Of a stretch of DNA of 64,000 bases, positions 32,300 through 61,107 are shown one piece after another. A program made the position numbers and the translations under genes. The notes under the pieces are model-generated. The model made no database searches. It was not told where the DNA came from and saw only the letters and a list, made by a program, of their open reading frames with translations. The stretch is from positions 28,737 through 92,736 of IMG/VR virus record IMGVR_UViG_3300009601_000004. One strand, 5' to 3'. Source of the stretch: a virus. Numbering within the stretch: position 1 is the stretch's first letter; the number at the start of each line of letters is the position of its first letter.

Positions 32300-33433
32300 T
32301 TAGTGCAGGCCTCGGACCCCACCGCCAAGCGAAACAGAGCGAAGCCCCGACATGCGGTTCGAGCTGCTTTGCTTGATGTGGATGGTACCGCCCTTGATGG
32401 ACATGTCGGCGTTGCTGTGCTTGTACCCGCGCGACTGTGCCCATGCACGCGCGCTAGTGGGTGTGAACTGCGGTCGAGGGAAGACAAGCACTTTCATGGC
32501 CTGTGGGTTTTTGCGGGGCTTCGTCATCAGCTTAGCCATGTGTGCCGGTCCTTTGGCCAGGATGGGGTCGATGGTGCGTATAGCTGCGGCGTCGCCTTGG
32601 TCGGCGAGGTCGGCGAGGCGAAATAGACGCTCCATCTCTGGGACATTGGCGTTGCCCTGCTTGTACGCGGTGTGCGAACCTTTACCTAGCGTGGACAAGC
32701 GAGTGGACTTGAGCTGCAGCTCGACGGGCACTTCAACCATGCGCCCGTCTTCGGTTTCCAGCTCGCGCATCAGCGTGAAGTGGTAAGCGCGGTAGCCGTT
32801 GTTGGGGCTGGTGTAAAAGTCGTCGTCTAGCTTGGCGCGGCCCAGTGCCCCGCCTTCGATGATTTTGCGCATACTCTCCACACCATAGCGGTCGGGCATT
32901 ACGATGGTGGTGGCTACCACGTCTGTAAGTCCCTTCTTACCCACAAGACGCTTACGGCGCAGCTTGTTGATCATCGAGTAGGGCGTCTTGACGCGTCCAA
33001 TGAATTTGCCACCTCGCTTGGTTGCGATCTGTTCCACGTCACGCCTGACGTCTTGAAAGAGCCCCTGCATCGAGTCGCGGTAATCCAGCAGCTTACCCAT
33101 CTCTTCAGACAGCTTGGTCTCTTCGATACGGCGGGTGTTCTGTTTGCCGTAGGGTTCAGGGTCGTCAACCGCTGGGATGCCGTCCCCATCGAAATCGTTG
33201 AAGAACGCCGGGTAGTCCTTGCGGCTTAGGCGTGTGTCACCTGTCGCATGGACTGCGTACTCTTCCGCTCCGCTGTTTGGTCTGACCGAGGGACGCACCA
33301 CCATGACAGCGTGGCCTTCGCCGTCGTAGACGTGACACGGCTTGTTGGTCGCTGCTGCCTGTTGGTGAGCGCGCCGTAGTGCGTTCTTTTTGCGTGTGTA
33401 AACTGTCGAACGGCCGTCAATGGTGAAGGGCAT
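32300..33433 (-). CDS. RelA/SpoT-type small alarmone synthetase (SAS) domain protein with extra N- and C-terminal modules
   Basis: GRVKTPYSMINK, LTD, GYRAYH, VELQLKS synthetase motifs; no HD hydrolase domain. Confidence 0.8.
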   Translation of the reverse strand: MPFTIDGRSTVYTRKKNALRRAHQQAAATNKPCHVYDGEGHAVMVVRPSVRPNSGAEEYAVHATGDTRLSRKDYPAFFNDFDGDGIPAVDDPEPYGKQNTRRIEETKLSEEMGKLLDYRDSMQGLFQDVRRDVEQIATKRGGKFIGRVKTPYSMINKLRRKRLVGKKGLTDVVATTIVMPDRYGVESMRKIIEGGALGRAKLDDDFYTSPNNGYRAYHFTLMRELETEDGRMVEVPVELQLKSTRLSTLGKGSHTAYKQGNANVPEMERLFRLADLADQGDAAAIRTIDPILAKGPAHMAKLMTKPRKNPQAMKVLVFPRPQFTPTSARAWAQSRGYKHSNADMSIKGGTIHIKQSSSNRMSGLRSVSLGGGVRGLH

Positions 33434-33436
33434 GTG

Positions 33437-34402
33437 TCATCTCCGGGTCATGTATAGAGCGATGGCGTAGGCGTCCCAAGTGTGTCGATGCTTGCGCAGA
33501 CGTCGGGGTAGCCGTGGGTTGTTTTTGTCGTTGACCAGGTCCTGCAGTTCACGCCAGACACGCGAATCGCGGCCTACTTCGGTAGGTGTCAGCCCCAGCA
33601 AAGAAGAGGCCCAAGTGCGTTTGTCTATGACGGTTCGGCCTTGGCTTGCCCCATCGGAAGCAATGGCGTTGACGACGTCGGCACTCCGCTTGTCCTTGCC
33701 GCCGCCCCACGTCTCTTCCACGACCAGGCGATAGGTGCCTTGCGCGAGCTGTGCGGCTCGTGCGGCGATGTGCTCGCCGATACCGGCCATCGTATCGAAC
33801 GTCAGTACCTCACCGCTCCCTGCGGCTTCTAGCAGCCCTCGACCGCCTTTACTGTCTTCGTCCCAAGACCAGCCCCAAGCACCCAAGATGCGCCTGCCAT
33901 CTGCCGTGATGAGGACGGCGGCACCGCTGGGGCCGTCGTCGACTGCGAGCACTGGGTTAGCGTGGCGCGGGTTGCGCTTGACCGTCGGTGTGCTGCGGGC
34001 CAGCAGCTCGATACGACCCGTCAAGGTGGGACCGTTGAGTGACTGATAGCCTTTCGTGATGAGCTGGTTGCTGTACGACGCAGCGACACCAGAGGCGTGC
34101 GAGACGGTGATGTGATGTGGGCCCACAGAAGGAAGTCCACGAGGCAGCTCAACGACCAGAGCCTGCGCCTGCTGGTCTTGCGCCACTCCTACCACTTTCA
34201 TGCGCACTGCACGCCCGACAAGGTCAGGCAGAGCGGACAGCGCGAGTGTGACGTGGTCCGCAGTGACATGGGGATGTGCAGGCGCCACGGCGCGTAGCAC
34301 AGCTCGCCGTGACTTAGGGGACAGCTTGACCGCGGTGTATTCGCGACGACGCTTTGTCATGCGTCGATACCGGAGGCTTGCAGCTGGAAGGCGTGGGGCC
34401 AC
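33437..34402 (-). CDS. 2H phosphoesterase fused to a RuvC-like nuclease
   Basis: Two HxT motifs (DHVTL, HHITV); then VLAVDDG, LVVEE, W..LLG, DAYAIA. Confidence 0.65.
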   Translation of the reverse strand: MAPRLPAASLRYRRMTKRRREYTAVKLSPKSRRAVLRAVAPAHPHVTADHVTLALSALPDLVGRAVRMKVVGVAQDQQAQALVVELPRGLPSVGPHHITVSHASGVAASYSNQLITKGYQSLNGPTLTGRIELLARSTPTVKRNPRHANPVLAVDDGPSGAAVLITADGRRILGAWGWSWDEDSKGGRGLLEAAGSGEVLTFDTMAGIGEHIAARAAQLAQGTYRLVVEETWGGGKDKRSADVVNAIASDGASQGRTVIDKRTWASSLLGLTPTEVGRDSRVWRELQDLVNDKNNPRLPRRLRKHRHTWDAYAIALYMTRR

Positions 34403-36723
34403 TTCGCAATGGTGTCCTCCATCCGCAGCATCTCAGCGTGCTCTTTGCCTGGTAGACGCCGACCGGCCTCTGCGTAGCCCATCATGCGGTCTTCCATCGC
34501 AACGTACTGCCGGTACATCTTCGTAGCCACTGCCATCGTGGGGAGGCCGTCGTTGTCGTCGTTGTCGTTGCTGGCCTGGATGGCCTTCACGAGCTTGCGC
34601 CAGTCCCAGTTTGGGATGCCAAAGACTTCCGCAACGTGCATCAGCGCGGCACCTGTAAGGATGCGCTGCTGCACCTGACCACGCCGGCTCCAGTTGAACC
34701 CGCGCAGCTTGCCATGGATGGGAGCACCCCGCTCGTAGGCGAGTTTGATGCGGTCGTCTGTGATCTCGATGCCGACCTCGGTACCGTCAGGCGCAACCAA
34801 GTTGCCGGACACACCCGAGGCCTCTTTGCGCACGAGGATGTCATCGAGCATGTCGACGGCGGCTTTCAAGTCGGGCCCCGTGGCTTTACCTTGACGCCTC
34901 GCGGCAATCAATAGCTTCAGCTTGCGCAGCTGGATACCGGCTTGACCCCCTGACTCTTCCATGCGTGCTTTGTTGATCTCACGCTGGGTGACTTTGGCCG
35001 CTTGCTTGATCAAGTCGAGCCAGTCCCCTTGCCGGCGGTCGGCACTGTCCGACTTTTTTTGCTCCCGGCGCTCATTGCGACCACCTCGGCCTGTGATCAT
35101 CCACGATGTGGTACCTGCCCGCGAGCCCAAAAAGGCGCGGAAAGCGGCTTTGTACTTTGTCAGGAAGCGGCCTAGCTCGGCAATGGCTGTACGGCGCTGG
35201 TTGACTGTATCCGCCATGTCTGCAGCCTCTTCTGCCATGTCATTCCACATACTGGCGTACTCACGGCGGTACTGCTCTCCGCGCCTCTCCGCTGAAAATG
35301 ACGTGCCTTGGAAGGCCATCGACGCCGTTGAGCTGCTGACGTCACGTATGGACGCTCTAGGTGCCGGCAGGTAGACCTCGTCGTCAGGTGTGATGCGCGG
35401 TGGTAGCGGCTGAGGCTTGCCTAAGACCTTCTCGTACTTGGCTATCAACGCGTCCATCTTCGCGTCAGCAGACGCTTTCCGCGCACCCTGTGTGGCTTTG
35501 AGCCGGTCACGGTGGACCTTGTCACTCGCAGCCTTACTGGCAACCGCCTGTGATAGCCGAGGTACGCGCTGACTCCAGAGAAAGCGGAGAATCTCCTCAC
35601 TGGTGTCCCCTGGGCCAAACCAGCTATTCCAGCCCCCGTAGCCATTCTTCTCGCCTAAGCGCACACCGAACACAGCGGCAACCAAGTCACCGCCAGCGTA
35701 GTTGCTCATCATCTCGCGGGTCTTGCCTCGGCCCTTCCGCCCGTCTTTGTCTACGGTTTTGGCGATGGCGTCAGCCAGCTGTACCATTGTTTTCTTTGCG
35801 GGAGATGCTGGGGCATTCGTCCACAGCAACGGAGGGGTGTTGAGACCCGACATACGCCGCACTAGGAGGTTGACCACCTGACGCGACTCGTCACCTGCAT
35901 CCTCTGTTGTGATGGCAAAGTATGCGCGAGACCTGCCGTCTTTTTTGGGCTTAGCCCACTTGCGCATCTCGATGGTGAAGGGCTGACCCTCCAAGCTGAC
36001 AGGCTCCCCTTCCCAGGCAAAAGCGCGTACTGCGGGGATCAATTCGGGATTCTTCTCGTGGTAGTGGTCATCCGCCACCATTGCGCCTGGTAGAGGTGTT
36101 CCTTCACTCCGCGTGGCTTCAACCACACTCCGCCACTGCATGGCGGGGTACTCGATGCCTTCAATGGGCTTCGGGATGGCCTTCGCGGCGGGTGCCTTCT
36201 TGGCTGCTATGGACTGTAGGTAGTACCCACTACCCACACCTTTCGGCTTTTTCAGCTCGACTTGCAGGCCGCCAGCGTTCACGAGGTCCGTGATCTCTTG
36301 GCGCATTTTAGGTGTGATGCGCTTTACCGTGGTGTGCCCGACCGAACCGCGGTGACTACGCTTCTGCGTCTCACGTACGAGGTCGCCACGCATAAACCCC
36401 CGCTGCTCTGCGTAAGACAAGCGACTGTTGAGGCTCGACAGGCCCCACCGCATATCGGGGTCACCGACACCACGGTGCAGCCGGTGGGCCGCGTCGTTGA
36501 GGATGTACTCCGCGATGGCTTCGGCGTGAGTTGTCTTCGTCTTCTTGGCTGCTACGGCTTCCGCTACTTCGTAGATGGGACCGCCCTTACTTACGAGGGT
36601 CTTGCGGTGCTTCATCATCCAGGTGGCGGTCGAACGTGTCGAGCTGTCCGAGGCCATGATGGCGTGAACACGGTCAAAGATGTGCGTTGCGAGTGACGCG
36701 TTGCTGGGATTCTTACGTCTCAT
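34357..36723 (-). CDS. Large multidomain (polyvalent-like) protein
   Basis: N-terminal RKNP plus shared leader domain; SWMITG and GFNWS..QRILT motifs. Confidence 0.6.
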   Translation of the reverse strand: MRRKNPSNASLATHIFDRVHAIMASDSSTRSTATWMMKHRKTLVSKGGPIYEVAEAVAAKKTKTTHAEAIAEYILNDAAHRLHRGVGDPDMRWGLSSLNSRLSYAEQRGFMRGDLVRETQKRSHRGSVGHTTVKRITPKMRQEITDLVNAGGLQVELKKPKGVGSGYYLQSIAAKKAPAAKAIPKPIEGIEYPAMQWRSVVEATRSEGTPLPGAMVADDHYHEKNPELIPAVRAFAWEGEPVSLEGQPFTIEMRKWAKPKKDGRSRAYFAITTEDAGDESRQVVNLLVRRMSGLNTPPLLWTNAPASPAKKTMVQLADAIAKTVDKDGRKGRGKTREMMSNYAGGDLVAAVFGVRLGEKNGYGGWNSWFGPGDTSEEILRFLWSQRVPRLSQAVASKAASDKVHRDRLKATQGARKASADAKMDALIAKYEKVLGKPQPLPPRITPDDEVYLPAPRASIRDVSSSTASMAFQGTSFSAERRGEQYRREYASMWNDMAEEAADMADTVNQRRTAIAELGRFLTKYKAAFRAFLGSRAGTTSWMITGRGGRNERREQKKSDSADRRQGDWLDLIKQAAKVTQREINKARMEESGGQAGIQLRKLKLLIAARRQGKATGPDLKAAVDMLDDILVRKEASGVSGNLVAPDGTEVGIEITDDRIKLAYERGAPIHGKLRGFNWSRRGQVQQRILTGAALMHVAEVFGIPNWDWRKLVKAIQASNDNDDNDGLPTMAVATKMYRQYVAMEDRMMGYAEAGRRLPGKEHAEMLRMEDTIAKWPHAFQLQASGIDA

Positions 36724-38837
36724 TGAGCTTTCCCTGCGAATGTAAGGTACCCGGCGCTACCGCCGACGGTGTGAGCTTCCCCGTGCTTGTACAGTCCGCG
36801 AACCTTCCACACGTATTTTTGGCGACGCTGCTCTGCGTGCTGGCCTGCGAACCACTGACCGCTCACCCCTTCCAATAGGTCCAACTGCAACCCCGGTGCT
36901 AGGTCGCGGATAGTCACACGCGTTTCACTGCCCTTGTTACCGCCGGAAAGGGCCACTAGCTCCAGTGTGGGGTCGCCCGCGTCGCCTGACACGTCTACGA
37001 CCACCCAGAGCTTGCGGCCCCCCTTGAGCTTCACCACGTTGTTTAGCCAGTTGTACAAGTCTGGGTGAGCCTTCGCGCTGTACGGCGCAGGCTTGACCTT
37101 GCCGAGCTTGCTCATGTCGACGTGCTCGACAGGTATGGTGAGACCGCCCACCTTCGCTGTGGTGGTGTGCGTGATGGCTACCCCACGAGCTTCGTGGGCA
37201 AGTGAATGCTCTAGTTCTTCGTTGTAGCTGTCACGCAGCTTTGCCGTCTTGCTCGCATTTGCCTCGCGGGTCGTGGCTGATGCGCGAGTGTAGGCGCGGT
37301 AGCGCAGCTTCTCCAACTTGGCTGTCTGCTTGTCAATGTCATGCCGTACCGCTTTGGACGGTCGCGGGGTGCCCCGCTCGTGCAGAGTGATTCCCTGCCG
37401 ATGTGCCTCGACACGTGCGGACCTGGCTTGCTCAACTGCGTCGGCAAACCCTGGGTCTTTGTACCCCTTTTGAATGACGTCCACAGCAGCTGACATAGCA
37501 GCTTGCAACTGAGCCGGTGTGCGCCCCTTTGAGATGGCTACCGGCTTGCGCTTGGGCTTCTGCGCAGTCCACGTCTTGTACGAGTCCTGCACATCCTCAA
37601 GGGTGTACGAACTGGAGTGGGTGGGCTTCTGGGGCCCCATCATGTAGCCGCCTCGACGCCGCGCGTGCTCCTTTAGGTAGTCAGCTACACTCATGCTCGC
37701 ATAATGCTTCAGTGTCGAGAGCAGGGCTCGCAGGGCTCGCTGCGCGCCAGACCCGAAAGATTGGCTGTACCAGTGCCAGCTGTACGCGCCACGCAATGTG
37801 TAGGCTGCTCGTTTGCCGCCGCCGGAGTTTGTTACCCGCCAACCTTCGGGAAGGTGGCGCTTAACGTCCCGAATGGACGCGACACGACCTTTAGCCTCGG
37901 CATCCGCAAGGGCTTGCTCAACGACCTTAGCTCCGACCTGGCTTTCCGCTAGGAACGCGGTCACTTGCTCTGCGAATAGCTTGTCAGCGAGGGCGTAGGC
38001 TGCGCTATCGCGACGTCCTTTGGCCGCTGCGGCCCGGTCGTCTTGGGCGACTTGGGCGGCGCCGGCTTTCGACGCGACGATACGGGGGTCTCGATACCCA
38101 GCACCCGCAAGCACTTGCTTCCCGATAACGGGCCAAAACTTCCACGAGTTTGCGAGCTTCTGCAGAGATGCCCTGCGGGTCTTTTCCATCGTGTGTTCGA
38201 TCTTCTGGCCCTTGTAGAACAGATCAGCGTCCCAGCGTACCCATGAGCGCTCCCCAACCTTGTTGACCTTGACGGTGACTCGGTCGCGGATGCCGGCGTC
38301 GTCAAGGATGCCATTAAAATAGGCCGTCGCGTCTTTGACGTTGGTACCTACCTCGGAACCGTCACTCTCCTTGCTCCCGGTAAGTACACTCTTCGAGGTC
38401 TGTGGCTGCAGAACGCGCAGAATGGTTTGGTTCGCAGCTTCCCAGCCTGCGGGGTACTTCAGTCCTTCGGCCGACATCAGATGCCGCACAAGCTCAAAGC
38501 CGTAGATGCTCGCCGCCATGGCACGCATGGAGCCAGTGAGCCCTTGCCCCTCTAGGTAGAACTTGTTCACCAGTGTGGCCGCACGCTCAACTTGGTCCAG
38601 CAACGGCGTGTCCTTGCTCCGCAACCCAGCAAACCAATCAGGTACCTCCGCAGCCGGCGGTAGCTCGTCGTCGAGCCCACGTTTAGCAGCGACCACAGAC
38701 GCGGCCTCTGTGAAGATGCCAGCAATCAACGCAGCGCGGTTGCGCTCCATGAAGGCGGCGGTTGCCTGGCCCTCGCGGGTCGCCTGCAGGTATGCGTGCG
38801 TTGCTGCGTAGAGACGGGTTGGTAGTGAGATGGCCAT
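36720..38837 (-). CDS. Large basic multidomain protein with shared leader domain
   Basis: 705-aa ORF coupled to the next gene; N-terminal shared motif. Confidence 0.65.
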   Translation of the reverse strand: MAISLPTRLYAATHAYLQATREGQATAAFMERNRAALIAGIFTEAASVVAAKRGLDDELPPAAEVPDWFAGLRSKDTPLLDQVERAATLVNKFYLEGQGLTGSMRAMAASIYGFELVRHLMSAEGLKYPAGWEAANQTILRVLQPQTSKSVLTGSKESDGSEVGTNVKDATAYFNGILDDAGIRDRVTVKVNKVGERSWVRWDADLFYKGQKIEHTMEKTRRASLQKLANSWKFWPVIGKQVLAGAGYRDPRIVASKAGAAQVAQDDRAAAAKGRRDSAAYALADKLFAEQVTAFLAESQVGAKVVEQALADAEAKGRVASIRDVKRHLPEGWRVTNSGGGKRAAYTLRGAYSWHWYSQSFGSGAQRALRALLSTLKHYASMSVADYLKEHARRRGGYMMGPQKPTHSSSYTLEDVQDSYKTWTAQKPKRKPVAISKGRTPAQLQAAMSAAVDVIQKGYKDPGFADAVEQARSARVEAHRQGITLHERGTPRPSKAVRHDIDKQTAKLEKLRYRAYTRASATTREANASKTAKLRDSYNEELEHSLAHEARGVAITHTTTAKVGGLTIPVEHVDMSKLGKVKPAPYSAKAHPDLYNWLNNVVKLKGGRKLWVVVDVSGDAGDPTLELVALSGGNKGSETRVTIRDLAPGLQLDLLEGVSGQWFAGQHAEQRRQKYVWKVRGLYKHGEAHTVGGSAGYLTFAGKAQ

Positions 38838-38892: not shown

Positions 38893-38909
38893 GCAGGGCA
38901 TCGGAAGTG

Positions 38910-40823: not shown

Positions 40824-41336
40824 CTAACCTATGAGGCGCTCTGCCTCTTTGTGCAGATCACGCGGTAGCCGTTCACCATCAACTAGCCACTCTAGGTAGC
40901 TGGCGGGCACGTCGGCTAGGGCCTTGCCTCGGTGCTTGCCGAAGGGCATCACGTACTCCTCGCCTACGCTGGCAAGGAGACGTTCCCTGGCATCGCCAGT
41001 AACGACGCCTCGGTCGATGCGGTCTAGCAGACGGTACACCTCGAAGGCGTATGTTTCATTGCCCATGGCCGCGCGGGTCTTTGCTCCTATGCGCGGGTCA
41101 TCGTGGTACGTCGCCTGGCGGCTGTCACTCTGATTCACCGACGCATCTCGTGTGCTGCGACTTGCCTCGTGCCGCCTTGCTTCACGGCGCTCACGCGCTT
41201 TCGCACGCACAGCTGGCGATGTCTTGTACTCGTGTTGCCCAGTGCCGCCGCAGGAGAAGCAAACGCCCCCTTGCACATGGTGCGCCCAGTTGAGTCGTCC
41301 TGTGCCATCGCACTTGCCGCAAGTCTCACGATACAT
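40824..41336 (-). CDS. DnaJ-type zinc finger plus DUF3820-like (MPFGKH) domain protein
   Basis: CGKCDGTG, CFSCGGTG; MPFGKHRG..L.DVP.SYLEWL. Confidence 0.75.
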   Translation of the reverse strand: MYRETCGKCDGTGRLNWAHHVQGGVCFSCGGTGQHEYKTSPAVRAKARERREARRHEASRSTRDASVNQSDSRQATYHDDPRIGAKTRAAMGNETYAFEVYRLLDRIDRGVVTGDARERLLASVGEEYVMPFGKHRGKALADVPASYLEWLVDGERLPRDLHKEAERLIG

Positions 41337-44300
41337 CAGCTCTCCCGTCCGAGTAAATCCCAGCGCGCGGCACCCGCAACGGGTCCGGCCTCCCATCGTA
41401 TTTTGCGGGTCGTGCCTTTGGCGGCTTGTACACTTGCTGCCGATCGAGCGCCTTGCTTGCCACGCTTGCCACCGATGAGGGCGACAGGCCGCAACCCTTG
41501 CGATTTAAGGGCCTTGTAGGTATGGCCCCCTTCGCTCTCTAGGCTGTAGGTCACGAACAACCAAGGGCCGTCGGCGTCCCCTCGCTTGCTTGCAGGTGCC
41601 GCTTGTAGAACGGCGCTCGCAAGCATGGAAGATGCACCCGCGACACTGCCGTCGCTTGCGATGCGTGTCAGCTCTAGGACGTTGCGCTGGTCGAGGCGCT
41701 TCCATGGTGCGGAGGGATGACCTGCAGTCGCGACTGCTACCAAGCGGTCACCCCGGAAGGCACCTAGTGCGTACATGGTGCGGCGAGGCAGTTGCTTGAG
41801 TTGGCTGTGGTGAGCAGCTAAGAAGGCCCTAGCGGCCTCCCGGTCGACAGGTGCTAGGCGTAGCTTCTTACCCGCCTCGCCCACTGCCAGGTAGGTGAGC
41901 ATGTCAGCCATTGAGGCGACAGCTAGCCAGGTAGGAAGGGTCTGGTCGTCGTTGCGGGATGCGTCGTCGCGGGTGCGTCCTGTGTCGTGCTTCTTGCCTC
42001 CGGTGTGGCGATAGATCGGGTCACCGAAGGGCGAACCATCCCACCTGCCAGGGTCGGTCTCCATGGCGAGTTTGAACGCATGGACGGCCACAGAGCGGTC
42101 AAGGGCCTTGTCTGCGTTGAGCCCCATCGTACCGAGCACGGTCTCCATGGCTTCGGTGCTTGTCTCGTCGTCTGTCTTGCCTGCCAAGGCTTCCCACGCC
42201 CACGAGGCTTCGGGCTGTCCCAGCCAGTTCTTTGCAGTGCTTACGAGCTGCGCTGCCTGGTCAGGAAGGTCAGAGGGTAGGCCAGCGGGCCGACTGCGCT
42301 TGGTGGGTGTCTTGGGGCTGTAGCGCTTCCACAGACCAGCTTTCGGGTCGCCTGCAATGACCTCGCGGACCGCTTGACGGGTGACGGCGGGTGTCTCCAG
42401 TGTGTGAGCTTCCGCGCGTATCTCGGTCTCCATTGCCTGATGGAACACCTGATCCATGTACCAGGGCGAGTCGTTGGGGGCGTCGGCCTGCATGAACTCT
42501 GTCGGGTCCGCTGCCATGGCCCTACGCCAAGCCTGTGCAACCTTTCGAGGAGGGTTGTAGGCTTTGACCAGTGCGGAGGCCAGACGGTGCCGTGCGGCCT
42601 TCGTCATCCAGTCGAGATCACTCTCCACCTCGGTGCCGTCCATCGACCCACCGGGCGCCCACCGGGTCTCAGCGACGTCGCGACGCGCGGTATCTTTCGT
42701 CTTCATGTAGGGGCCAGGGTGGTGGCGGTTGCCCACCTTGCCGCGCAGGTAGACGCTATCGAAGTAGACCTCTGCACGTGGGTAGGCTTCGCGCACCATG
42801 GACAGGCGTTCTTGTGCTCCAGGTGCGCCGGGTGCGAGTCCCAGGAAGTGGAACGCATTCGGTGGGCTCTTGCGTACCGCACGCAGAAAGGCGCCCAGTT
42901 CTTCGATGGTGGTCGCGTCCTTCTTGCTGGGGATGCCGGCCACGAGCGTTGCACCACGTAGCTCTTTGCTCGCGGCGTTCCACATCTTGGCTTGGTCCCA
43001 CTTCCCGCCACGCTGCAGAGGTACGATGAGCCGGACGGGGGCAAAGGCCCCCAGTGCCCGCAGCTCGGGTGCGTAGCGGTCCCACAGCTTTACGGTGTGT
43101 GCAGGGTCGGCAACGCGGTCAGGGGCCACCAGGAAGAGACCGGGGGCGTGTGCTGGCCATCTGCTAGCAAGCCGATTGTAGACCCCTAGAACCTCTGGCC
43201 AGTTTGGTGCTTTGGCTGCGTCCCAAGCGGGCCCGGTTGCTGTGAACTCAACCTCCGAGAAAGCACCCGAGTCCACGAAGACAGGGACGGCGCTCGCGAT
43301 GTCGAGCAGTGCACCGACAGAGGCCTTGGTCAGCTCGGTCACAGCAACGCCGACGGCCTGACCCGCAGCACCGAGTGCGGCAATTTCAGCGGATCGAGTC
43401 GCACCACTGGCGAAGTAGACAGGAGGCTGCACGGCCTGCGTGCGTGAGCCGCCCATCCCGCTGTCACCGAGGTTTGAGCATATGGAGAGGTCGCCCAGTG
43501 GGAATAGGCCTTGGTCGGTGCCGGCCGACATCGAGCCGGCTGGCGGTCCCGGTCGACGGCCATCGGCTTGCTGCAGGGCGTTGCGGACGTGAGCGAGTAC
43601 AGCTCTGCCCATGTTCACTGGGATGCCGTTCCCTACTTGCTTGTACTCTTCTGCTTGCCCACCTGCGAAGACGTACCAGGAGGGAACATCTTGGAGCTTT
43701 GCGGCCTCTCTAGGCGTGAGCTGCCGGACCTCGCCTAGCTCTGGCGACAGGGCGCCCTTCTTGCCTTCCGGCTGGTGTCCAGGCTCCACAGTGATGCCGT
43801 AGGGGATTCCCTTGTACATGCTCTTGGTCATGGCCGGTGCCAACCAGCGGCCCACCAGGGCATCACGTTTGCCGGTCGGCCACCAGTTCGCGAAGGCCCC
43901 ACCGTAGTCGATGAACCCCTGCAGCTTCAGACGGTTGCGGCCATCCGTCAGCTCGCGATTGAGGTAGGCGATTGACTTGGGTGTCAGCTCGTCTCGGATG
44001 ACGTCGTTGTCGGCTTGCTCGTAGTTGCTGCCCATCTTGCAACCCCCACACATCCCGTCAAGGTTGCCGATGTTCACACACGAGCTGTACCCGAAGCCCC
44101 CGCAACATCCGTCGTTGAGCCGGTCGAATGCACGGGTATAGACGTTGGCCGATCCGTATGGGATCGATCGAGGGTCCAGACGGGTCGGTCTAGGGCCTGC
44201 TCGAAGGTAAGAGGCCCACGGTGCTCCCTTTGGCCAGAGCACGTAGAAGGCCCGTTCCCGCGTCTGCGGTGTACCGAAACTCGCAGCCTTCAAGACCCAC

Positions 44301-44869
44301 ACGGTCCCCTCGTACCCGGCCTCGTCGGCGAGCGTCTTCCACCAGACATCCCAGTAGGCTGACCACTTGCCAGCGCGGACGGTATTTGGGCTGTTTTCCA
44401 TTACGATAACGCGAGGCTGTCCTTCGCGTGCCCAGCGGATAACTTCGGGAAACAGGTTGCGAGGGTCCAGCGGTCCAAGTTGCCTACCCGCAGTGCTCCA
44501 CCCTTGGCAGGGTGGCCCACCTGTGAGGACATCGAGCCCTCCGCGGGGGATGTCCGGTGTCCACTTCGTTGCGTCGGCCTGCTTTGCTTTGCCTGGCAGC
44601 TGCCTGTCGAGCGTCTCAACCGCGGCGGCGTCGCACTCGACTAGCTCCTGCAGGTCGTAGCCTTCGATGAACCCAGCGAGCGCCAGCAGTCCACCACCAG
44701 CAAAAACGTCGGTCATGGTGTAGCGGTCACTCTTGCGGGGTAGGCGTCGCATGGCCTCGTTGAGCTGCACAAGGACAGGCGCACGATTGCGCACCATCCA
44801 CGCCGCCGTGTCGTTGGGCAGTGCTTTGTGCAGAGCCTCAAACAGGTCGCTGGTCGTGCGTACCGCCAC
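41336..44869 (-). CDS. Fusion of C5 cytosine DNA methyltransferase, TGT/DpdA-like transglycosylase and Mom/XF1762-like GNAT
   Basis: FAGGG, GGPPCQ, EN, QTRER, LTPREAAKLQ, QVGN; then VDSGAFS, APD..D, PLQ, HFLG, FDS; then F...HH, LVAVA..G.P, LELTR, LFVTY. Confidence 0.8.
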   Translation of the reverse strand: MAVRTTSDLFEALHKALPNDTAAWMVRNRAPVLVQLNEAMRRLPRKSDRYTMTDVFAGGGLLALAGFIEGYDLQELVECDAAAVETLDRQLPGKAKQADATKWTPDIPRGGLDVLTGGPPCQGWSTAGRQLGPLDPRNLFPEVIRWAREGQPRVIVMENSPNTVRAGKWSAYWDVWWKTLADEAGYEGTVWVLKAASFGTPQTRERAFYVLWPKGAPWASYLRAGPRPTRLDPRSIPYGSANVYTRAFDRLNDGCCGGFGYSSCVNIGNLDGMCGGCKMGSNYEQADNDVIRDELTPKSIAYLNRELTDGRNRLKLQGFIDYGGAFANWWPTGKRDALVGRWLAPAMTKSMYKGIPYGITVEPGHQPEGKKGALSPELGEVRQLTPREAAKLQDVPSWYVFAGGQAEEYKQVGNGIPVNMGRAVLAHVRNALQQADGRRPGPPAGSMSAGTDQGLFPLGDLSICSNLGDSGMGGSRTQAVQPPVYFASGATRSAEIAALGAAGQAVGVAVTELTKASVGALLDIASAVPVFVDSGAFSEVEFTATGPAWDAAKAPNWPEVLGVYNRLASRWPAHAPGLFLVAPDRVADPAHTVKLWDRYAPELRALGAFAPVRLIVPLQRGGKWDQAKMWNAASKELRGATLVAGIPSKKDATTIEELGAFLRAVRKSPPNAFHFLGLAPGAPGAQERLSMVREAYPRAEVYFDSVYLRGKVGNRHHPGPYMKTKDTARRDVAETRWAPGGSMDGTEVESDLDWMTKAARHRLASALVKAYNPPRKVAQAWRRAMAADPTEFMQADAPNDSPWYMDQVFHQAMETEIRAEAHTLETPAVTRQAVREVIAGDPKAGLWKRYSPKTPTKRSRPAGLPSDLPDQAAQLVSTAKNWLGQPEASWAWEALAGKTDDETSTEAMETVLGTMGLNADKALDRSVAVHAFKLAMETDPGRWDGSPFGDPIYRHTGGKKHDTGRTRDDASRNDDQTLPTWLAVASMADMLTYLAVGEAGKKLRLAPVDREAARAFLAAHHSQLKQLPRRTMYALGAFRGDRLVAVATAGHPSAPWKRLDQRNVLELTRIASDGSVAGASSMLASAVLQAAPASKRGDADGPWLFVTYSLESEGGHTYKALKSQGLRPVALIGGKRGKQGARSAASVQAAKGTTRKIRWEAGPVAGAARWDLLGRES

Positions 44870-52002: not shown

Positions 52003-52617
52003 CTAGCGTTCACGGCCTACGCGAACTCCGCAGTATTCCCACAAGATGGTCCCGTGACCAAAACGGACGTCACTGGCCTTGTAGCCGGGCGCCACATGCA
52101 GGAGGAGCAACGCCCCACCGGGACCGGGTGTGCAGTTCATCGGGGCCTTGACGACGCGCTCGGCGATGGCGCGGCTCGTGCGTTTGTCCCCACCGGAGTT
52201 TTCTGTGCGGAGGTAGAACGTCCCGGTCTTGGGTAGACTTGGGTTGCTCCGCGCTTCCCGCCGCACGCGTTCACCGTCGTGGTAGTGATTGACTTTGTCG
52301 GCGTCAGCAGCGGCTTTGTAGGGCGTCTTGTAGGTGGTCTTGCCCACTTTCACACCGTTGGGAGAGTACAGGTACCACACACCAGGGCGTGTTTTCTCCA
52401 TGCCCCAGCCATCAGCATTCACATACAGACGCTGCTCGTAGTCATAGGTCCAACCCTTGGGCATCCTGGCAGGGTTGCCATGCTTGCCGGGGTTCACAAA
52501 CAACGCGGAGGCGCTCCGAAGGCTGGGATTGCGGCGCTTGCCCCCTCCACGGCCCCTGCGGTGCGCCTTGGCTTGTGCGCGCGTCATGCCCATCTGTTTT
52601 GCTGTCTTGCCTGCCAT
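52003..52617 (-). CDS. Basic protein with four NP motifs
   Basis: RRNP, VNP, GNP, RSNP. Confidence 0.6.
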   Translation of the reverse strand: MAGKTAKQMGMTRAQAKAHRRGRGGGKRRNPSLRSASALFVNPGKHGNPARMPKGWTYDYEQRLYVNADGWGMEKTRPGVWYLYSPNGVKVGKTTYKTPYKAAADADKVNHYHDGERVRREARSNPSLPKTGTFYLRTENSGGDKRTSRAIAERVVKAPMNCTPGPGGALLLLHVAPGYKASDVRFGHGTILWEYCGVRVGRER

Positions 52618-53309
52618 TATGCCACCTGCCCTACGTAGTTAACGTAGCTGCCGTTTGCTTGGCGGTACGTGTATTTCGTGCGATTCGTCCGACGTGTCAC
52701 GTAGGATGCATGGACATTAGGGCCGCGTGAATTGCGGTTGTACAAGATGGCCTGGTCAACAACAATCTCGCCGTTGGCTACCATCTCGCGAATCAAGCTG
52801 TACGTGTCGTTGCGGTCCATCCCTTCGATGTAGAAGTCAACGGCCTCGCCTTTGGTGTGCTGGCTACCATTTTCACCGCCGATCTCGGTGTTCAACTTGG
52901 GGCTGCGAAACCACGAAGTGACTCGAACACGCCCGTTGACGCGTTGGTCGAGGGGTGACAAAAAGTTCAAAGACAGATTGGAACCTGCACGCAGCTGAAG
53001 GGGCGTCGCGGAGTTGTCGATGCCCTTGGCTACCGCGGTGTTGCTGTGTAGGAAATCTTCCACCAAGCTGAAGCGCCCGAAGTCGTACGTTTCAATGGCT
53101 TGCTGAGTCTGGGGTGTATTCACGTTCACTCCACTGGATGAGGTGCCGGATGGCTTGGCTGGGCTTTGCGACGTGATGCGCCGCTTCGGCGTCTTACGCT
53201 TCTGGGTCTTGACTACGACGTAGCCCACACCCGCGAGTGCAAGCACCGCGGCTATGACGCCACCTAGAGAGGCCATGGTGAGGCCTCTGCGCTTGCGGCG
53301 CCTTGCCAT
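52617..53309 (-). CDS. Membrane-anchored peptidase M15 (peptidoglycan hydrolase)
   Basis: SWFRS..LN..IGG..SQH.KGEAVD ... VHAS; N-terminal TM helix. Confidence 0.85.
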   Translation of the reverse strand: MARRRKRRGLTMASLGGVIAAVLALAGVGYVVVKTQKRKTPKRRITSQSPAKPSGTSSSGVNVNTPQTQQAIETYDFGRFSLVEDFLHSNTAVAKGIDNSATPLQLRAGSNLSLNFLSPLDQRVNGRVRVTSWFRSPKLNTEIGGENGSQHTKGEAVDFYIEGMDRNDTYSLIREMVANGEIVVDQAILYNRNSRGPNVHASYVTRRTNRTKYTYRQANGSYVNYVGQVA

Positions 53310-53310
53310 G

Positions 53311-53781
53311 TCAATCCTCTGCGGTGACCGCGTCAATGACTACGCGGGCTGTCTTGCCCCCATTCTTGCGCTTCTTGCGCATGAAAGGGACGGGATGTTT
53401 GCCTTGTCCGGTGCGGTAGACGGCGAAAAGCCCTCCACCTACGACAAGCGCCCAGCCCCACCACGGGACCGTCTGCACAGCCCAGGTAGCGGTCCTGCGG
53501 ACGACACCGAGCTGCTTGACCTGTGGCTGCTGCTGCTCTTGCTCACCGGGAGCGGGCATCTGCGGTTCAGAGGACTGCGTGAAGGTCGTGCGGCCCGATT
53601 GGTCGAAGCCTCCGACCTGCGGACCCGCGCCACCAACGGCACCTGCACCACCTGCACCCGAAGGACCACCGTAGTAGTCTTCGGCTGTTTGGTAGGCCCC
53701 TTGCGGTGGCCGGGATTTGCTCTCTGGCTTGAAAGGCACTTGCCCCATGGAGCTAGAGGCGAACGGTAGTACGTCGGGCAT
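53311..53781 (-). CDS. Membrane-anchored virion protein candidate
   Basis: PWWGWALVVGGGLFAVY followed by a basic tail. Confidence 0.55.
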   Translation of the reverse strand: MPDVLPFASSSMGQVPFKPESKSRPPQGAYQTAEDYYGGPSGAGGAGAVGGAGPQVGGFDQSGRTTFTQSSEPQMPAPGEQEQQQPQVKQLGVVRRTATWAVQTVPWWGWALVVGGGLFAVYRTGQGKHPVPFMRKKRKNGGKTARVVIDAVTAED

Positions 53782-54823: not shown

Positions 54824-54838
54824 GGGGTCATCCTCCTA

Positions 54839-56356: not shown

Positions 56357-57382
56357 CTAGGAGCCGACGAGCACGGCGCCCATGGCACCAGAGAAGCCGC
56401 CCGGTGAGACCGAGAAGCCAGGGCCCATGCCCATGTCAGCGGAGAGGAGGCCGTAGCCACCGGTAGAACTGGACACGAGGGCGCCCATGCCGGCCACTGG
56501 CTCATCACCACCGACCTGCTGTTCAGGTGTCGCGATGCCGGCTTCATTCGCCAGCTGGCGTGAACGCATCTTGACGTAGCCAGCACCCGCACCTGCAGCG
56601 GTCATCAGACCCGGCAGATTGGCGATGGAGCCAAGGAACGGGATCTTCGAGATACCGGCCATCTTCAGGCCACCTGCAACGACTGCACCAGAGAGAGCGG
56701 AGAGCAGCGTAAAGTACGCAAACTCATTCTCTTTCAGTACGGCCGGGATCCAAGTCTGCGACGAGACAATGGGCGACAGGCGGAGTGGGATTTCCATTGC
56801 GACACCGGCCAAGAGGCCAGCAGGCATGGAGCCGAACGCCGCCGCGAGGGTACCGCCAATGACAGGCACCTTCTTGAACATCTTGCCAATGCCGGGATTG
56901 CGGCGGACACGGCGAGAGCCCCGACGTGTCTTGCTCGACAGCTTCCATGGATTGCGACGCGGACGCATGGCTCCACGGCCCTTACGTGCGCGCTTGCGCT
57001 TGATCTTGCCGGCGTGAATGCGACGAACACCTGGACGCGGGTTGCGGCGTTTTGCCTGACCACGGCGAGAGGTGCGGCGTTTTGCCTGCCCACGGCGGGC
57101 GGTGCGGTGCTTCGCCTGCCCACGGCGGGCGGCGCGGCGAGGGTTGCGACGAGTTGCCCGGCGACGATTGCGACTGGCAAGCATACGGCGGCCAGAGTGA
57201 CGGCCCTTGCGGCCCTTGCGGCCCTTGCGGCTTGTGCGGCCCCGACGGGTCTTGCTGCGACTGCGGGGATTGCGGCGGGTGACCCGAGGTGCCTTACGGC
57301 GAGCCTTACGGCCTCGACCCGGATTGCTGATCACCGTCGCGATTGTCCGGCGGCGGCTAGTTGCGGTGCGACGACGCGCCAT
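56357..57382 (-). CDS. Arg-rich protamine-like protein with C-terminal hydrophobic helices (core/membrane protein candidate)
   Basis: Five RRNP, three RRGQAK repeats, then hydrophobic segments and a Gly/Met-rich tail. Confidence 0.65.
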   Translation of the reverse strand: MARRRTATSRRRTIATVISNPGRGRKARRKAPRVTRRNPRSRSKTRRGRTSRKGRKGRKGRHSGRRMLASRNRRRATRRNPRRAARRGQAKHRTARRGQAKRRTSRRGQAKRRNPRPGVRRIHAGKIKRKRARKGRGAMRPRRNPWKLSSKTRRGSRRVRRNPGIGKMFKKVPVIGGTLAAAFGSMPAGLLAGVAMEIPLRLSPIVSSQTWIPAVLKENEFAYFTLLSALSGAVVAGGLKMAGISKIPFLGSIANLPGLMTAAGAGAGYVKMRSRQLANEAGIATPEQQVGGDEPVAGMGALVSSSTGGYGLLSADMGMGPGFSVSPGGFSGAMGAVLVGS

Positions 57383-57579
57383 ACTGTACTCCTACGTGTA
57401 AAAAGGCTGCGGCGGCGTCACCCTAGGGGGCCTCTCCGTCAGCAGGCCACCGAAGCGGCCGACACTCGTAGTTTGGCGGTTTGGCCCCACAACTGGCACG
57501 CCTGCGGCCAATAGGGGGTGCCATGGCGTCTAGGCGCATGGGCGCTTCTTTCTACTGGGCGCCGTGGTAGTCAGGGTGG

Positions 57580-57595
57580 CTAGACCGCTAGACTG
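57580..57595 (+). promoter_or_regulatory. CGCTAGACTG motif copy 5 (extended CTAGACCGCTAGACTG)
   Basis: Identical to the extended copy at 46994-47009; upstream of the RHH gene. Confidence 0.6.
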
Positions 57596-57604
57596 CCCCT
57601 GGGG

Positions 57605-57820
57605 GTGCGCGTGAAGAAGATCAGCGTCAAGATGGCAGACGGTTTGCACAAGAAAGTGGGGCACATAGCAGTGGACGAGGACGTCACCAAAGCGGGCGTG
57701 TGCCGTTCGGCGCTACTCGTGTTCTTGGAGCTACGCCCTGCATTACCAGCTCTACGAGCCCGCGCCAAAAAAGAAGGCGTCCCGTTGGACACCTTGATCA
57801 CACAGCTGTTGAGCGCTTAG
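57605..57820 (+). CDS. Ribbon-helix-helix (CopG-like) regulator
   Basis: KKISVKM...LH...A.....TKA.VCRSAL. Confidence 0.65.
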   Translation: MRVKKISVKMADGLHKKVGHIAVDEDVTKAGVCRSALLVFLELRPALPALRARAKKEGVPLDTLITQLLSA

Positions 57821-58446
57821 CTCAGCTTCACAACAGAGATGCGCTGAAGAGTGCCGCCTGTGCCTGCGGCGCCAGCACTACATGTGAGTGCGATGCCGAG
57901 GACGTTGTCAATCGTGGTGTTCGGATTGGTGCCATCCACGTCGTTGTCCACTGACCCAGCAACGGCTGCAATCTTGGCACTGATGTCGGAAGCAAACGAC
58001 GCCACACCGCCGACACCGATGGTACGAACAGTTAAGTTAGCCGAGATGAACCAGTCACCCGAGGCCGACGTGATGGCGGCAGTAGTAGCCAGCGCTGTGC
58101 CGCCAAAGCTCAAATCGAAGACGGCTGTCTGTGCCCCTGCTCGTAGCCAAGTGCCGCTTGCCTGCACCTGTAGGACGTCACCTACTGCAAGTGTGCTGGC
58201 ACCCACAGTGTACGTGCTGTTGAACACGGTGCGCACGGCGGTGTTGTCAATGGTCGCAGAGGGTGCGACCGAGGCCAACAGCAAAGCAGACCCGGCGGTC
58301 GACCACAACGGGGCCACACCTGGTCCACCTGACTGGAGACGTGAGCCGGCTACCCCCGCACCTAAGCGGGAGAGCAGGCCATTGGCCCCCATATAAAGCA
58401 GATCACCCAGGGTGGTGAGTGTCCAGCGGCTGGCTTGATGAGGCAT
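57817..58446 (-). CDS. Beta-rich spike/fibre-like protein, paralog of 59573-60193
   Basis: Thr/Ala/Gly-rich strands; shared motifs with 59573-60193. Confidence 0.55.
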   Translation of the reverse strand: MPHQASRWTLTTLGDLLYMGANGLLSRLGAGVAGSRLQSGGPGVAPLWSTAGSALLLASVAPSATIDNTAVRTVFNSTYTVGASTLAVGDVLQVQASGTWLRAGAQTAVFDLSFGGTALATTAAITSASGDWFISANLTVRTIGVGGVASFASDISAKIAAVAGSVDNDVDGTNPNTTIDNVLGIALTCSAGAAGTGGTLQRISVVKLS

Positions 58447-58489
58447 TCATTCATCCTAGTGATCTGTGTGACTGGGAGCGTCGAGCGGC

Positions 58490-58837
58490 TTAGCCGAGAG
58501 CGGTGCCATCGTTATGGACCAGACGCCAGACATAGGTCGCAGCCGCTGTACGGAAGGCCTGCAACGTGAACGAGTCGCCAACATCAGCCAGCGTGATCGT
58601 AGTGTTGCCCGCCACATTGAAGGCTGCTGCTACGGTGACGACACAGTCACCGCCATCCGTCAGGAAGTAGCAACGGATCTGCTGGCCTGCGAAGGTCGGG
58701 ACTGCAATAGTCCGCGCTTCCGCACCAGCTGTAATGATTGCGTAGTCCTGCGAGATGGCGACGCCAAGGGCACCACCAGCGCCAGGGTCAGCAGCGAATG
58801 TCGAGCTGTCTACGCCAGAAAAGAAATTAGAGGGCAT
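58490..58837 (-). CDS. Small beta-rich structural protein candidate
   Basis: GGAG RBS; ITL..VGDS.TL....W.L pattern. Confidence 0.5.
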   Translation of the reverse strand: MPSNFFSGVDSSTFAADPGAGGALGVAISQDYAIITAGAEARTIAVPTFAGQQIRCYFLTDGGDCVVTVAAAFNVAGNTTITLADVGDSFTLQAFRTAAATYVWRLVHNDGTALG

Positions 58838-58912
58838 GATGTCTCCTTGGGTGGAACCAATGGGTTGCACAAGTAGTTTAGCGGCACGGCTGCAGAAGTG
58901 GCACAAACGTCT

Positions 58913-59572
58913 TTAGTTTGTGATCCCTGCGTCTGGCACATGGTAGTCACCGCCGGCCCACCACAGGCGTCCACGCTTGTCGACACCGAGCCAGGGCTTG
59001 TGCCCGGTCTCTTCGCCCATGTGGTGTTCATACAGGTCGGGGATAAACTCATGTGCTAAGCGGGCGCCCTTGCGTCTGGCTTTCGCATCGTCCATCTTCG
59101 GCGTCAGGTAGACGACACGCTCGACGATGCCTACGGGCTTTACCAACACGTTGGGGTAGCGCTTTTTGTGCTGCCGAAGTTTGCGCCGGTACGGCTGGCC
59201 ATACTCATCCCACGTCGCGAGCTGTGCCAGCTTGAGCGGCTGGACGCCTCGACCTCGGTCCCAGAGCGCCCGCTTCATCTCCTGCAAGACGTGCAAGTCA
59301 AGCACATTGTACAGCCGCCTGACCTTCGGGTCGTCGAATAGCAGCATGGCTTGTGGGTCATCCCCATCGGTCGGGAAGTCCAGCACCATAGTGTCTCCGC
59401 CAGGTGAGCGGATTTCCAGCTCGGACAAGCGGCCCATCATCACCAAGTGGTCGGGTAGGTCCGCGTCATCGACCTCAAGCACTTTGTCAGCCTCGATGCC
59501 CCAGTGCGCGTCTTTGTACGCCTTCAAGGAGCTGGCGGGTGCTTTCCCTGTCGAGCGGCGTATCTTGCCCAT
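58913..59572 (-). CDS. Hypothetical protein in the structural block
   Basis: Tight packing; YEHHMGEE and GGDY.V motifs. Confidence 0.6.
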   Translation of the reverse strand: MGKIRRSTGKAPASSLKAYKDAHWGIEADKVLEVDDADLPDHLVMMGRLSELEIRSPGGDTMVLDFPTDGDDPQAMLLFDDPKVRRLYNVLDLHVLQEMKRALWDRGRGVQPLKLAQLATWDEYGQPYRRKLRQHKKRYPNVLVKPVGIVERVVYLTPKMDDAKARRKGARLAHEFIPDLYEHHMGEETGHKPWLGVDKRGRLWWAGGDYHVPDAGITN

Positions 59573-60193
59573 CTAGGGGGCCGATGGCGGGAACATGGTC
59601 ACTGTGCTGTACACGCTGGTGATGCTGTTCGAGGCGTTGGCTGTTCCCCACTGCGCACCCGCTTGGATCGATAAGTCACCCGTGGGGGACGACTGCACCG
59701 CGGCGTAGCTGGTAGCCGCATCCGCCGTGCCCAGCCGCGTAAGAATCTCCGTACGCAGCTTGACAGCACCAACGGCGTCCACGTAGAGGTCCGCGCTGAT
59801 GGACCACTCGCCATCCAGGTTGGGTGAGATTGTGCGACTGAGCAAGACCACACCTTCAACAACCAAGCTCACGACGAGTTCTGGAGTTCCTGTGCGGCCC
59901 CACGAGCCCCCAAGACTAATGCGACCCGTGGCACCCGCTTGCAATTTGGCTGCTGGGATGGTCACAGGGGCGAAAACGCCAGCGGTTGTGGTGTTGGCGA
60001 TGGTGCCTGCGGTCTCGTCACTGCTGGCTTGGGCGGTGCCCAAAGTGCCCGCCATAGCAACCCACGCTACACCGGTCCAGTAGTACAGAGTGCCTAGATA
60101 GGTCTCCAGTGAATACTGCACGCCGGTCGCGGGTAGGCCGGCGGCCTGCTCGATGTTGATACCGCCGTCTGGGAATCGTGTCGTGTCAGCCAT
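59573..60193 (-). CDS. Beta-rich spike/fibre-like protein
   Basis: LYYWTGVAWV; paralogous to 57817-58446. Confidence 0.55.
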   Translation of the reverse strand: MADTTRFPDGGINIEQAAGLPATGVQYSLETYLGTLYYWTGVAWVAMAGTLGTAQASSDETAGTIANTTTAGVFAPVTIPAAKLQAGATGRISLGGSWGRTGTPELVVSLVVEGVVLLSRTISPNLDGEWSISADLYVDAVGAVKLRTEILTRLGTADAATSYAAVQSSPTGDLSIQAGAQWGTANASNSITSVYSTVTMFPPSAP

Positions 60194-61107
60194 TAGTGCT
60201 TCCGTGCGCGCTTGCGGCGCAGTCTAGGGTTTTTACGCTTGGTGGGCAGCAGTGCCGCCCCTATTTTCGCGTAGGGTGCCGCCACAGCGGCCACGAGGCC
60301 AACGCCACCGGCGACCACACCGACCTTGCCCCAAGTGGGCAGGTTTGTCCACAAAGCGCTGACCACCCATTTCACCGGGTCATTCTCACGGTCCTTGGGA
60401 TTCGAGGGGTCACCACCGGGCATCACAACACCTGCCACGTCTTCGGGGATGCGTAGACGCTTGAGCCGGGTAAGGTACGTGACAGCCGCGGGTGCTGACA
60501 AGCGTTGCATCTTGTCGATGCCTTCGTCGTAAAGTCCCCGGATGCGACTGGGTGCATCCGACCTCCCGATCGACGCCTGACCCATGACCTGCGCACCTAC
60601 GTCAGTCACCCACTGCCCCACCCACGCTCCCAGGTAGTAGGTGGCGTTAAACCCTGCGGCCAGCGTCGCTGTCCACAAGTTCAAGATCGCATAGCCGGCG
60701 CTCTGTGCAGGCCTCGACGTGGGGTCTACAGCACGCCGGACATACTCGTAGGTACTCGCAGGGCGCTGTCCCGATAGTATCTCTTTGTGGAGCTGCACGC
60801 GGTTGACTGTCGCCGAGACGACTGCCAAGCGAAGCTGCACACCGACGGTGTTGCCCGCAGCTTCCCCAACCCACGAGGGTGCCTGTGCGATGCTCGATGC
60901 AAAGCTCCCGTCGCGGTTGCCGTTGGGTAGCGCCATGAAGGCGACAACCTCTTTGATCATCCTGCCAATGGCTTTGCGGTCCCCTGGCGCTTTCTGCTGC
61001 TTTGCGGCACCGAGAGCACCGAGAGCACCGAAGCCTCGGGCGGTGCCGAAACCTTCCCCGGAGACGCTACGGTGCGCAAGCGCTGACTGACCTTGCCAAT
61101 GACTCAT
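60193..61107 (-). CDS. Membrane-anchored protein with RKNP basic tail
   Basis: C-terminal TM helix then KRKNPRLRRKRARKH. Confidence 0.6.
   Translation of the reverse strand: MSHWQGQSALAHRSVSGEGFGTARGFGALGALGAAKQQKAPGDRKAIGRMIKEVVAFMALPNGNRDGSFASSIAQAPSWVGEAAGNTVGVQLRLAVVSATVNRVQLHKEILSGQRPASTYEYVRRAVDPTSRPAQSAGYAILNLWTATLAAGFNATYYLGAWVGQWVTDVGAQVMGQASIGRSDAPSRIRGLYDEGIDKMQRLSAPAAVTYLTRLKRLRIPEDVAGVVMPGGDPSNPKDRENDPVKWVVSALWTNLPTWGKVGVVAGGVGLVAAVAAPYAKIGAALLPTKRKNPRLRRKRARKH

Follow-up and report, generated by a model that had tools for sequence, protein, structure and literature searches.

The 64,000-nucleotide stretch analyzed here (the window) corresponds to bases 28737-92736 of the IMG/VR virus record IMGVR_UViG_3300009601_000004, a single contig of 92,736 bp with 61% GC. 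A short amino acid motif containing asparagine-proline (Asn-Pro, NP), written (R/K)(R/K)NP in its strict form and R-x-N-P/G in its wider one, recurs in minus-strand genes of this virus. The motif is real, is under selection at the protein level, is conserved in homologues and coincides with the boundaries of protein modules. Judged from homologues across several protein families, R-x-N-P/G is conserved and marks the places where modules end or join (seams), at which they are inserted, swapped or found alone. We tentatively read it as a site of processing behind leaders and at junctions in modular virion or cargo proteins, a reading that falls a little short of an even chance.

Every (R/K)(R/K)NP site listed in a previous sequence-only reading of this DNA was located in the open reading frame (ORF) named for it. 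The six-frame scan detected 14 such words, 10 of which fall in six real minus-strand genes, and the remaining ~95 proteins predicted in the 92.7-kb genome had none. Using a self-trained gene set of 101 proteins, the 10 observed sites compared with 0.56 expected from within-protein shuffles (Poisson p = 5.6e-10). None of 5000 shuffles reached 10 sites, either with whole proteins or with blocks of 20 amino acids (aa) that keep the local composition, and in an unbiased scan the motif ranked first of 10,000 class-class-X-Y motifs. The recurrence first noticed from the letters thus survives a correction for composition. When the protamine-like protein A, described below, was removed, 5 sites remained against 0.53 expected (p ~2e-4, rank 3 of 10,000 motifs). 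The absence of the motif from the replication proteins, also pointed out in the sequence-only reading, was observed, but it is uninformative because only 0.27 sites were expected in the other 60 proteins.

The codons differ among the 10 sites (AAT or AAC for Asn, all four Pro codons, CGN or AAR for the basic residues) and therefore the constraint acts on the protein; a repeat or recombination site at the DNA level was ruled out by this use of different synonymous codons. A 2A-like “StopGo” signal was also ruled out, since NPGP and the upstream consensus are absent and the host is taken to be bacterial because of the presence of a sigma-70-like gene. The same applied to a twin-arginine translocation (Tat) signal, as no hydrophobic region was found downstream of RR. 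The seams are frequently doubled, as in NPRHANP, NPVRRRNP, NPRKNP and NPHSNP.

The position of the motif was compared with the points at which homologues diverge. Nine independent homology breakpoints in the families of proteins B, D and E were found 1–7 residues from an N-P/G site, a fit that random placement equalled in 0 of 200,000 Monte Carlo trials (p < 5e-6). Protein B (204 aa; 52003-52617, minus strand) is composed of a leader, a seam, a module X, a second seam and a module Y, and ends where its homologues go on with another seam. Its first seam (RRNP, aa 28; 52525-52536, minus strand) follows a conserved leader of 27 aa, and in the homologue P0022 a 75-aa module flanked by two copies of the motif is inserted at this point. 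The second one (RSNP, aa 123; 52240-52251, minus strand) separates modules X and Y. P0022 also has a different module X and carries an extra module appended after RSNPHSNP, exactly at the end point of B. The homologue P0023 has module X in common with B, but its homology stops at the second seam, which is RKNP in P0023, and it contains an additional RRNP joint. Two further proteins considered as relatives, P0024 and P0025, were discarded as repetitive unrelated proteins.

A similar arrangement was observed in protein D (788 aa; 34357-36723), which starts with MRRKNP (RKNP at aa 3-6; 36706-36717, minus strand). Its only homologue, P0002 (52% identity), has an extra N-terminal module of ~120 aa with MRRRRVQNP at its start. 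KRQNPVRRRNP links this module to the D-like part, and the RRRNP of this junction is aligned with the MRRKNP of D. In protein E (33437-34360, minus strand) the double seam KRNPRHANP (33953-33979, minus strand) is located between a 2H-like part and a RuvC-like module. Translation of E probably begins at the ATG at 34360, which overlaps the stop codon of D as ATGA, and not at the GTG at 34402. RRNP precedes the RuvC-like module in three architectures: the module is a separate protein in P0016, is joined to the 2H-like part in E and is joined to an unrelated domain in P0017. P0017 starts with MARRRNP and shows NPGVKSNPG at another joint. P0033 and P0016 belong to one cluster of 90% identity and differ only upstream of RRNP. 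Exceptions were P0018, without the motif, and P0019, which has SNG. The AlphaFold2 (AF2) model of E is weak, with a predicted local distance difference test (pLDDT) value of 51; it is ordered only from about residue 146 and gives loose support for the position of the linker.

In protein F (32300-33433) RKNP (aa 307; 32504-32515, minus strand) is found between the RelA/SpoT part (Pfam RelA_SpoT, residues 146-261) and a C-terminal module of 67 aa. Residues 311/312-377, directly past RKNP, produced predicted-structure matches to solo viral proteins of 70–78 aa (TM-score 0.74–0.82), and the lowest pLDDT values of the weak AF2 model of F (pLDDT 42) correspond to residues 301-320. No homology was found between this module and the modules of B. 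The solo proteins matched by this C-terminal module (window 32300-32500) form large clusters, and by predicted structure the module also matched part of proteins with a Mu-like prophage I domain (PF10123).

The proposal of the sequence-only reading that the motif stands at domain boundaries was therefore borne out by homology breakpoints for 34357-36723, 33437-34402 and 52003-52617, and by the structural matches starting at residue 311/312 for 32300-33433. It did not hold for 60193-61107, where RKNP (aa 291; 60226-60237, minus strand) lies in the polybasic C-terminal tail of a tail-anchored membrane protein, behind the membrane helix and not between domains. The variant RKNG was found in the basic tail behind the membrane helix of 53311-53781 (53359-53370, minus strand), and NP is missing from the basic tails of the proteins adjoining 60193-61107. 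A basic leader with NP at its end was observed in A, B, D, P0002, P0016 and P0017, and the motif is also internal and C-terminal. Moreover, the natural termini of forms lacking a seam are within ~5 aa of the predicted cut, since P0018 starts with MTRACILAVD and B ends with GRER. Altogether, the motif is kept in independent relatives and coincides there with the module breakpoints.

Half of the strict sites belong to protein A (341 aa; 56357-57382, minus strand). Its N-terminal ~170 aa are protamine-like, with 45% Arg+Lys and six Asn-Pro units, and its C-terminal half is hydrophobic and Gly/Ala-rich. The first unit is ISNP (aa 18; 57320-57331), and is followed by five RRNP sites at aa 36 (57266-57277), aa 78 (57140-57151), aa 112 (57038-57049), aa 142 (56948-56959) and aa 160 (56894-56905), all of them on the minus strand. 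The last two sites flank a conserved peptide of ~17 aa (WKLSSK...), and the fifth immediately precedes the hydrophobic domain. A three-fold RRGQAK repeat with a period of 10 aa was also found between two RRNP sites (window 57045-57135), which points to a recent tandem duplication inside the basic region of A.

The alignment of A with 12 homologues revealed a conserved hydrophobic C-terminal half (51–90% identity to A). The basic N-terminal parts of the homologues, of 117–172 aa and 37–47% Arg+Lys, were largely unalignable. Each of these basic parts contains 6–8 Asn, and the next residue was Pro (64) or Gly (14) in 78 of the 84 cases; in A itself, Pro follows six of the seven. Among the residues preceding these 78 Asn, Arg was found at position -2 in 52 and at position -1 in 47, with Ser at -1 in 15. 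Two members of the family use mostly RRNG, and NP is replaced by NG in P0012 and P0014. N20 and P21 of the first unit and N162 of the last one are invariant in the family. Since 78 of 84 Asn precede Pro or Gly and non-basic seams keep NP, the Asn is kept more strictly than the basic residues.

In the reading favored here, R-x-N-P (mostly (R/K)(R/K)NP, sometimes with N-G) would be a lineage-specific seam code of the structural and cargo gene block. The seam would end a short basic N-terminal leader and mark each joint between small exchangeable modules, and the modular precursors would be cut at or beside Asn to give free modules. The protamine-like part of the membrane-anchored protein A would be cut into about seven basic peptides. 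A viral enzyme, a host enzyme or the chemistry of Asn itself could act as the cutting agent, and the Arg-rich surroundings may help to keep the precursors on DNA or inside the particle. The cutting, the packaging and their timing are steps that we infer. Precedents for Asn-Pro self-cleavage have been described in RsgI and in the outer capsid proteins of reovirus and aquareovirus (PMC10328401). A bolder version would see here a new maturation code that dispenses with a conventional prohead protease, scission being driven by Asn in disordered linkers or carried out by a transglutaminase-fold enzyme of the virion, in a lineage of ~90-kb probably membrane-containing viruses; cargo and protamine-like precursors would be converted into free enzymes and about seven DNA-condensing peptides, and the same code would operate in SSIP-1-like and other uncultivated viruses. 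In this full form the proposal seems to us rather unlikely.

The search for a candidate protease gave a mixed picture. The sequence-only reading had recognized no protease gene in the window; indeed, no conventional maturation protease was found there, but a membrane-anchored M15 cell-wall peptidase (52617-53336) was detected in the protease survey. No peptidase family embedded in the multidomain proteins was found with Pfam/PHROG. Outside the window, the only candidate processing enzyme is a transglutaminase-core protein (PF01841) of 373 aa with a GDCDD...H motif (genome 5463-6584, minus strand). Cys and His are conserved in its papain-like core, and its C-terminal part consists of a membrane helix and a basic tail. 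It is weakly similar to SSIP-1 gp34, annotated as structural. The sequence LDNPK was observed just ahead of its membrane anchor.

Several observations weigh against processing at the seams. No recognized prohead or maturation protease was found in the scanned parts of the genome, which included about half of the small ORFs, nor any plausible HExxH motif, so no zincin peptidase; the transglutaminase-like protein may just as well be an enzyme of the cell wall or of another kind. X-Pro bonds are poor substrates for most endopeptidases. The cut at MRRKNP would remove only 4–5 residues, and the seams are located in basic, low-confidence linkers of weak models, unlike the Asn-Pro self-cleavage sites of folded domains. 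NP is not avoided in the other proteins (observed/expected 1.16), and the five sites outside A, considered in this genome alone, are not significant after multiple-testing correction. The largest multidomain enzymes (1177, 889, 705 and 702 aa), the first of them a three-enzyme protein, do not contain any (R/K)(R/K)NP site. The earlier suggestion that these ORFs may act as polyproteins can be retained in the form of “beads on a string”, with the motif marking the joints where relatives add, replace or split modules. It fits neither these large enzymes nor the unfused proteins that keep the motif at their extreme N-terminus (MRRKNP, MARRRNP, MRRRRVQNP).

The last of these features would be explained if the motif were never cut. 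In this alternative, a short linear motif made of a basic arm and an Asn-Pro/Gly turn would bind the packaged DNA or a partner in the particle, tethering enzymes and membrane proteins to the core as a signal for encapsidation or co-delivery without proteolysis. The motif is set in Arg/Lys-rich sequence and is commonest in the protamine-like protein, and it stands at the N-terminus of unfused D, P0002, P0016 and P0017 and in a C-terminal polybasic tail, where cutting serves little. The change from NP to NG in P0012 and P0014 preserves a turn, and repeated turn tetrapeptides are known in basic DNA-binding tails, such as SPKK and the GRP core of the AT-hook. However, NP is kept in seams with few or no basic residues (FVNPG, HGNPA, VIPNPG, HANP), and charge is therefore not the conserved part. 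A tether does not by itself account for the presence of the motif at every module joint, nor for the frequent doubling of the seams. We regard this alternative, the strongest competitor of processing, as possible but on balance doubtful. It is also conceivable that the motif has no role as a signal or in cleavage, and that modules can simply be exchanged without structural harm where a flexible basic linker holds an Asx-Pro turn or helix N-cap; recombinants broken at such a point would survive and the motif would persist. Both NP and NG are well known as turn and cap dipeptides, the linkers were modelled at low confidence, and the breakpoints fall at the motif even within one cluster of 90% identity. 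Linkers normally vary, yet N-P is kept at ~50% identity and at N-termini that link nothing, and the A-family proteins steadily keep 6–8 units although their spacers cannot be aligned, which speaks for selection on the unit as such. A purely passive joint is thus improbable in our view.

Two other explanations deserve very little weight. The motif might be the substrate tag of a transglutaminase-like enzyme of the virion, the side chain of Asn forming an isopeptide bond between cargo and core or membrane proteins. The virus does encode a membrane-anchored transglutaminase-core protein, its SSIP-1 counterpart is structural, and the Asn is invariant. Transglutaminases act on Gln and not on Asn, however, the domain may equally be that of a peptidase or cell-wall enzyme, and nothing ties it to the motif, so that such a tag is most improbable. 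Chance, or an effect of the composition of Arg-rich sequence, might be suspected from the concentration of half of the sites in one Arg-rich protein and from the third rank of the rest, which fails correction. This is hardly credible, as block shuffles keeping the local composition never equalled the observed count, six of the seven Asn of the basic part of A precede Pro, and the conservation and the match with breakpoints in independent homologues contradict it.

The genes around the seams were also analyzed. The genes at 32300-38837 (36720-38837, D, E and F) are tightly coupled: stop and start codons overlap as ATGA at 36720-36723 and at 34357-34360, and only 3 nt separate the genes of E and F. 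A similar helical segment of ~35 aa (L..a.H ... T..WM..nR..L) was found at the N-termini of three large, otherwise unrelated proteins, 34357-36723, 36720-38837 and 41336-44869 (segment at window 36630-36700, 38740-38830 and 44770-44860, respectively), and may represent a common addressing or docking domain. In D this segment comes immediately after MRRKNP. The Pfam/PHROG searches identified a replication set consisting of a PolA-UDG fusion, a DUF3987 helicase/primase and SNF2 and UvrD helicases. Further matches were a PD-(D/E)XK nuclease, an integrase, an RNA ligase, an HD hydrolase and a sigma-70-like protein, and the conflict-type enzymes comprised a fusion of C5-methylase and Mom (1177 aa), an SNF2 protein (889 aa) and the RelA/SpoT protein. 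No capsid, portal, terminase or prohead protease was recognized in these searches.

Many small proteins are encoded on the minus strand between ~49,900 and the window's end, and several of them carry a polybasic tail behind a C-terminal membrane helix. Tail-anchored proteins are numerous in this structural block (window 53311-53781, 60193-61107, 61104-61706, 61703-62659, 62637-63149 and 63131-63706, and genome 5463-6584 outside the window); RTSRKRRRSRR, KRRRTRRSR and RRSKRRKR are examples of the tails that often follow the single hydrophobic helix. These proteins may fit an internal viral membrane with proteins facing the DNA, and the virus may be of the tailless, membrane-containing kind. The matches of a 213-aa protein adjoining the protamine-like gene were limited to clusters of hypothetical viral proteins, and weak leads pointed to capsid families of the jelly-roll type.

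The contig ends overlap by 25 bp in a CGC repeat (window 63976-64000 and genome 1-25), inside an apparent Gly-rich coding region, and this overlap makes it probable that the genome is complete and either circular or circularly permuted. Homologues of the proteins of this virus were found on metagenome contigs of 89.5 and 94.8 kb, and a further related contig of 47 kb was found in Joint Genome Institute (JGI) data; the search of JGI metagenome contigs for relatives detected only one contig of 1.3 kb. No relatives were detected in IMG/VR for D, A or the A-family alignment, in GTDB genomes, or among GenBank phages, either by DNA or, for the capsid candidate, A and F, by protein. The element is an uncultivated bacterial virus lineage of ~90 kb. 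If the seams are cut or serve for docking, they would provide a simple sequence rule for recognizing packaged cargo and module boundaries in uncultivated viruses without recognizable structural genes, and would suggest a way of maturing or packaging particles that has not been described among viruses of prokaryotes. Even if they are passive, the motif pinpoints where evolution swaps modules in these proteins.

No published account of RRNP, KRNP or RKNP seams in bacteriophages was found in the literature search, and the motif was compared with known systems. Short maturation-site codes or leaders are known in several large virions: the protease AVP of adenovirus with pVII and pre-Mu, gp21 of T4 with the capsid targeting sequence, and the prohead protease of phiKZ-like phages (SPN3US). 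The virus studied here resembles them in having a short conserved motif after N-terminal leaders and between segments of core and cargo proteins, and would resemble them further in the division of a basic DNA-condensing precursor into several pieces. It differs in the motif itself, R-x-N-P, in that the processing is predicted from sequence, and in the virus being probably tailless and membrane-containing. The T4-type capsid targeting sequence is an N-terminal leader of packaged internal proteins that the prohead protease removes; the leaders seen here may be comparable, and the present motif is also internal and C-terminal.

The polyvalent proteins of phages and conjugative elements have been proposed to travel with the DNA and perhaps to be processed, and the text of that work describes no Asn-Pro or linker code, with 0 occurrences of “Asn-Pro” and of “linker” (Iyer, Burroughs, Anand, de Souza and Aravind, 2017; PMC5512222). 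The present virus is like them in its C5-methylase+Mom, SNF2 helicase, RelA/SpoT and 2H phosphoesterase proteins, with variable fusions as well as solo forms. Thus, E combines 2H-like and RuvC-like parts, the RuvC-like module occurs by itself in P0016 and P0018 and in other fusions in P0017 and P0019, and P0002 adds an N-terminal module to D. The zincin-like metallopeptidase (MPTase) domains invoked for the polyvalent proteins are absent from the virus, no embedded peptidase for self-processing, zincin-like or papain-like, was found in its multidomain proteins, and its seams are found in proteins made of small modules and not in the largest multidomain enzymes.

The motif shares with Asn-Pro self-cleavage systems, to which the NPTH sequence of FlhB/YscU also belongs, an invariant Asn followed by Pro, and among these systems there is a viral precedent in capsid maturation. 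VP5 of aquareovirus is cleaved at Asn42-Pro43, and mu1 of reovirus is likewise self-cleaving (PMC9148132, PMC10328401). The sites known so far occur singly, each within a folded domain that holds it in a strained turn and supplies helper residues (PMC10328401). By contrast, many sites are present here, in basic linkers that are probably disordered, and Gly takes the place of Pro in some of them.

Repeated turn motifs in basic DNA-binding tails, namely SPKK of histones H1 and H2B and the R-G-R-P core of the AT-hook, are comparable to the A family in that a four-residue unit ending in a turn former occurs 6–8 times in an Arg/Lys-rich tail. Nevertheless, the core is R-R-N-P or R-x-N-P and not R-G-R-P or S-P-K-K, DNA binding by A is putative, and SPKK and the AT-hook do not mark module junctions in enzymes.

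Finally, the cultured phage SSIP-1 (JN880423), a distant relative, also has tail-anchored proteins, and its structural protein gp34 is the one that resembles the transglutaminase-like protein. The structural protein gp41 of SSIP-1 (25740-26612) starts with MRENPS and has VRENPQG ahead of its C-terminal membrane helix, and gp44 (33840-34565) contains NPAELVVHENP near its N-terminus. R.NP is modestly enriched in SSIP-1 (5 observed, 1.3 expected). The relationship is limited to a single weak protein match (phmmer 5e-5, in a database of 57 proteins), and the SSIP-1 genome is half the size. In sum, the motif is real and conserved and belongs with the site codes already familiar from virion or polyvalent proteins, and what appears to be new here is an Asn-Pro seam motif as the putative site code, differing from the codes already known.

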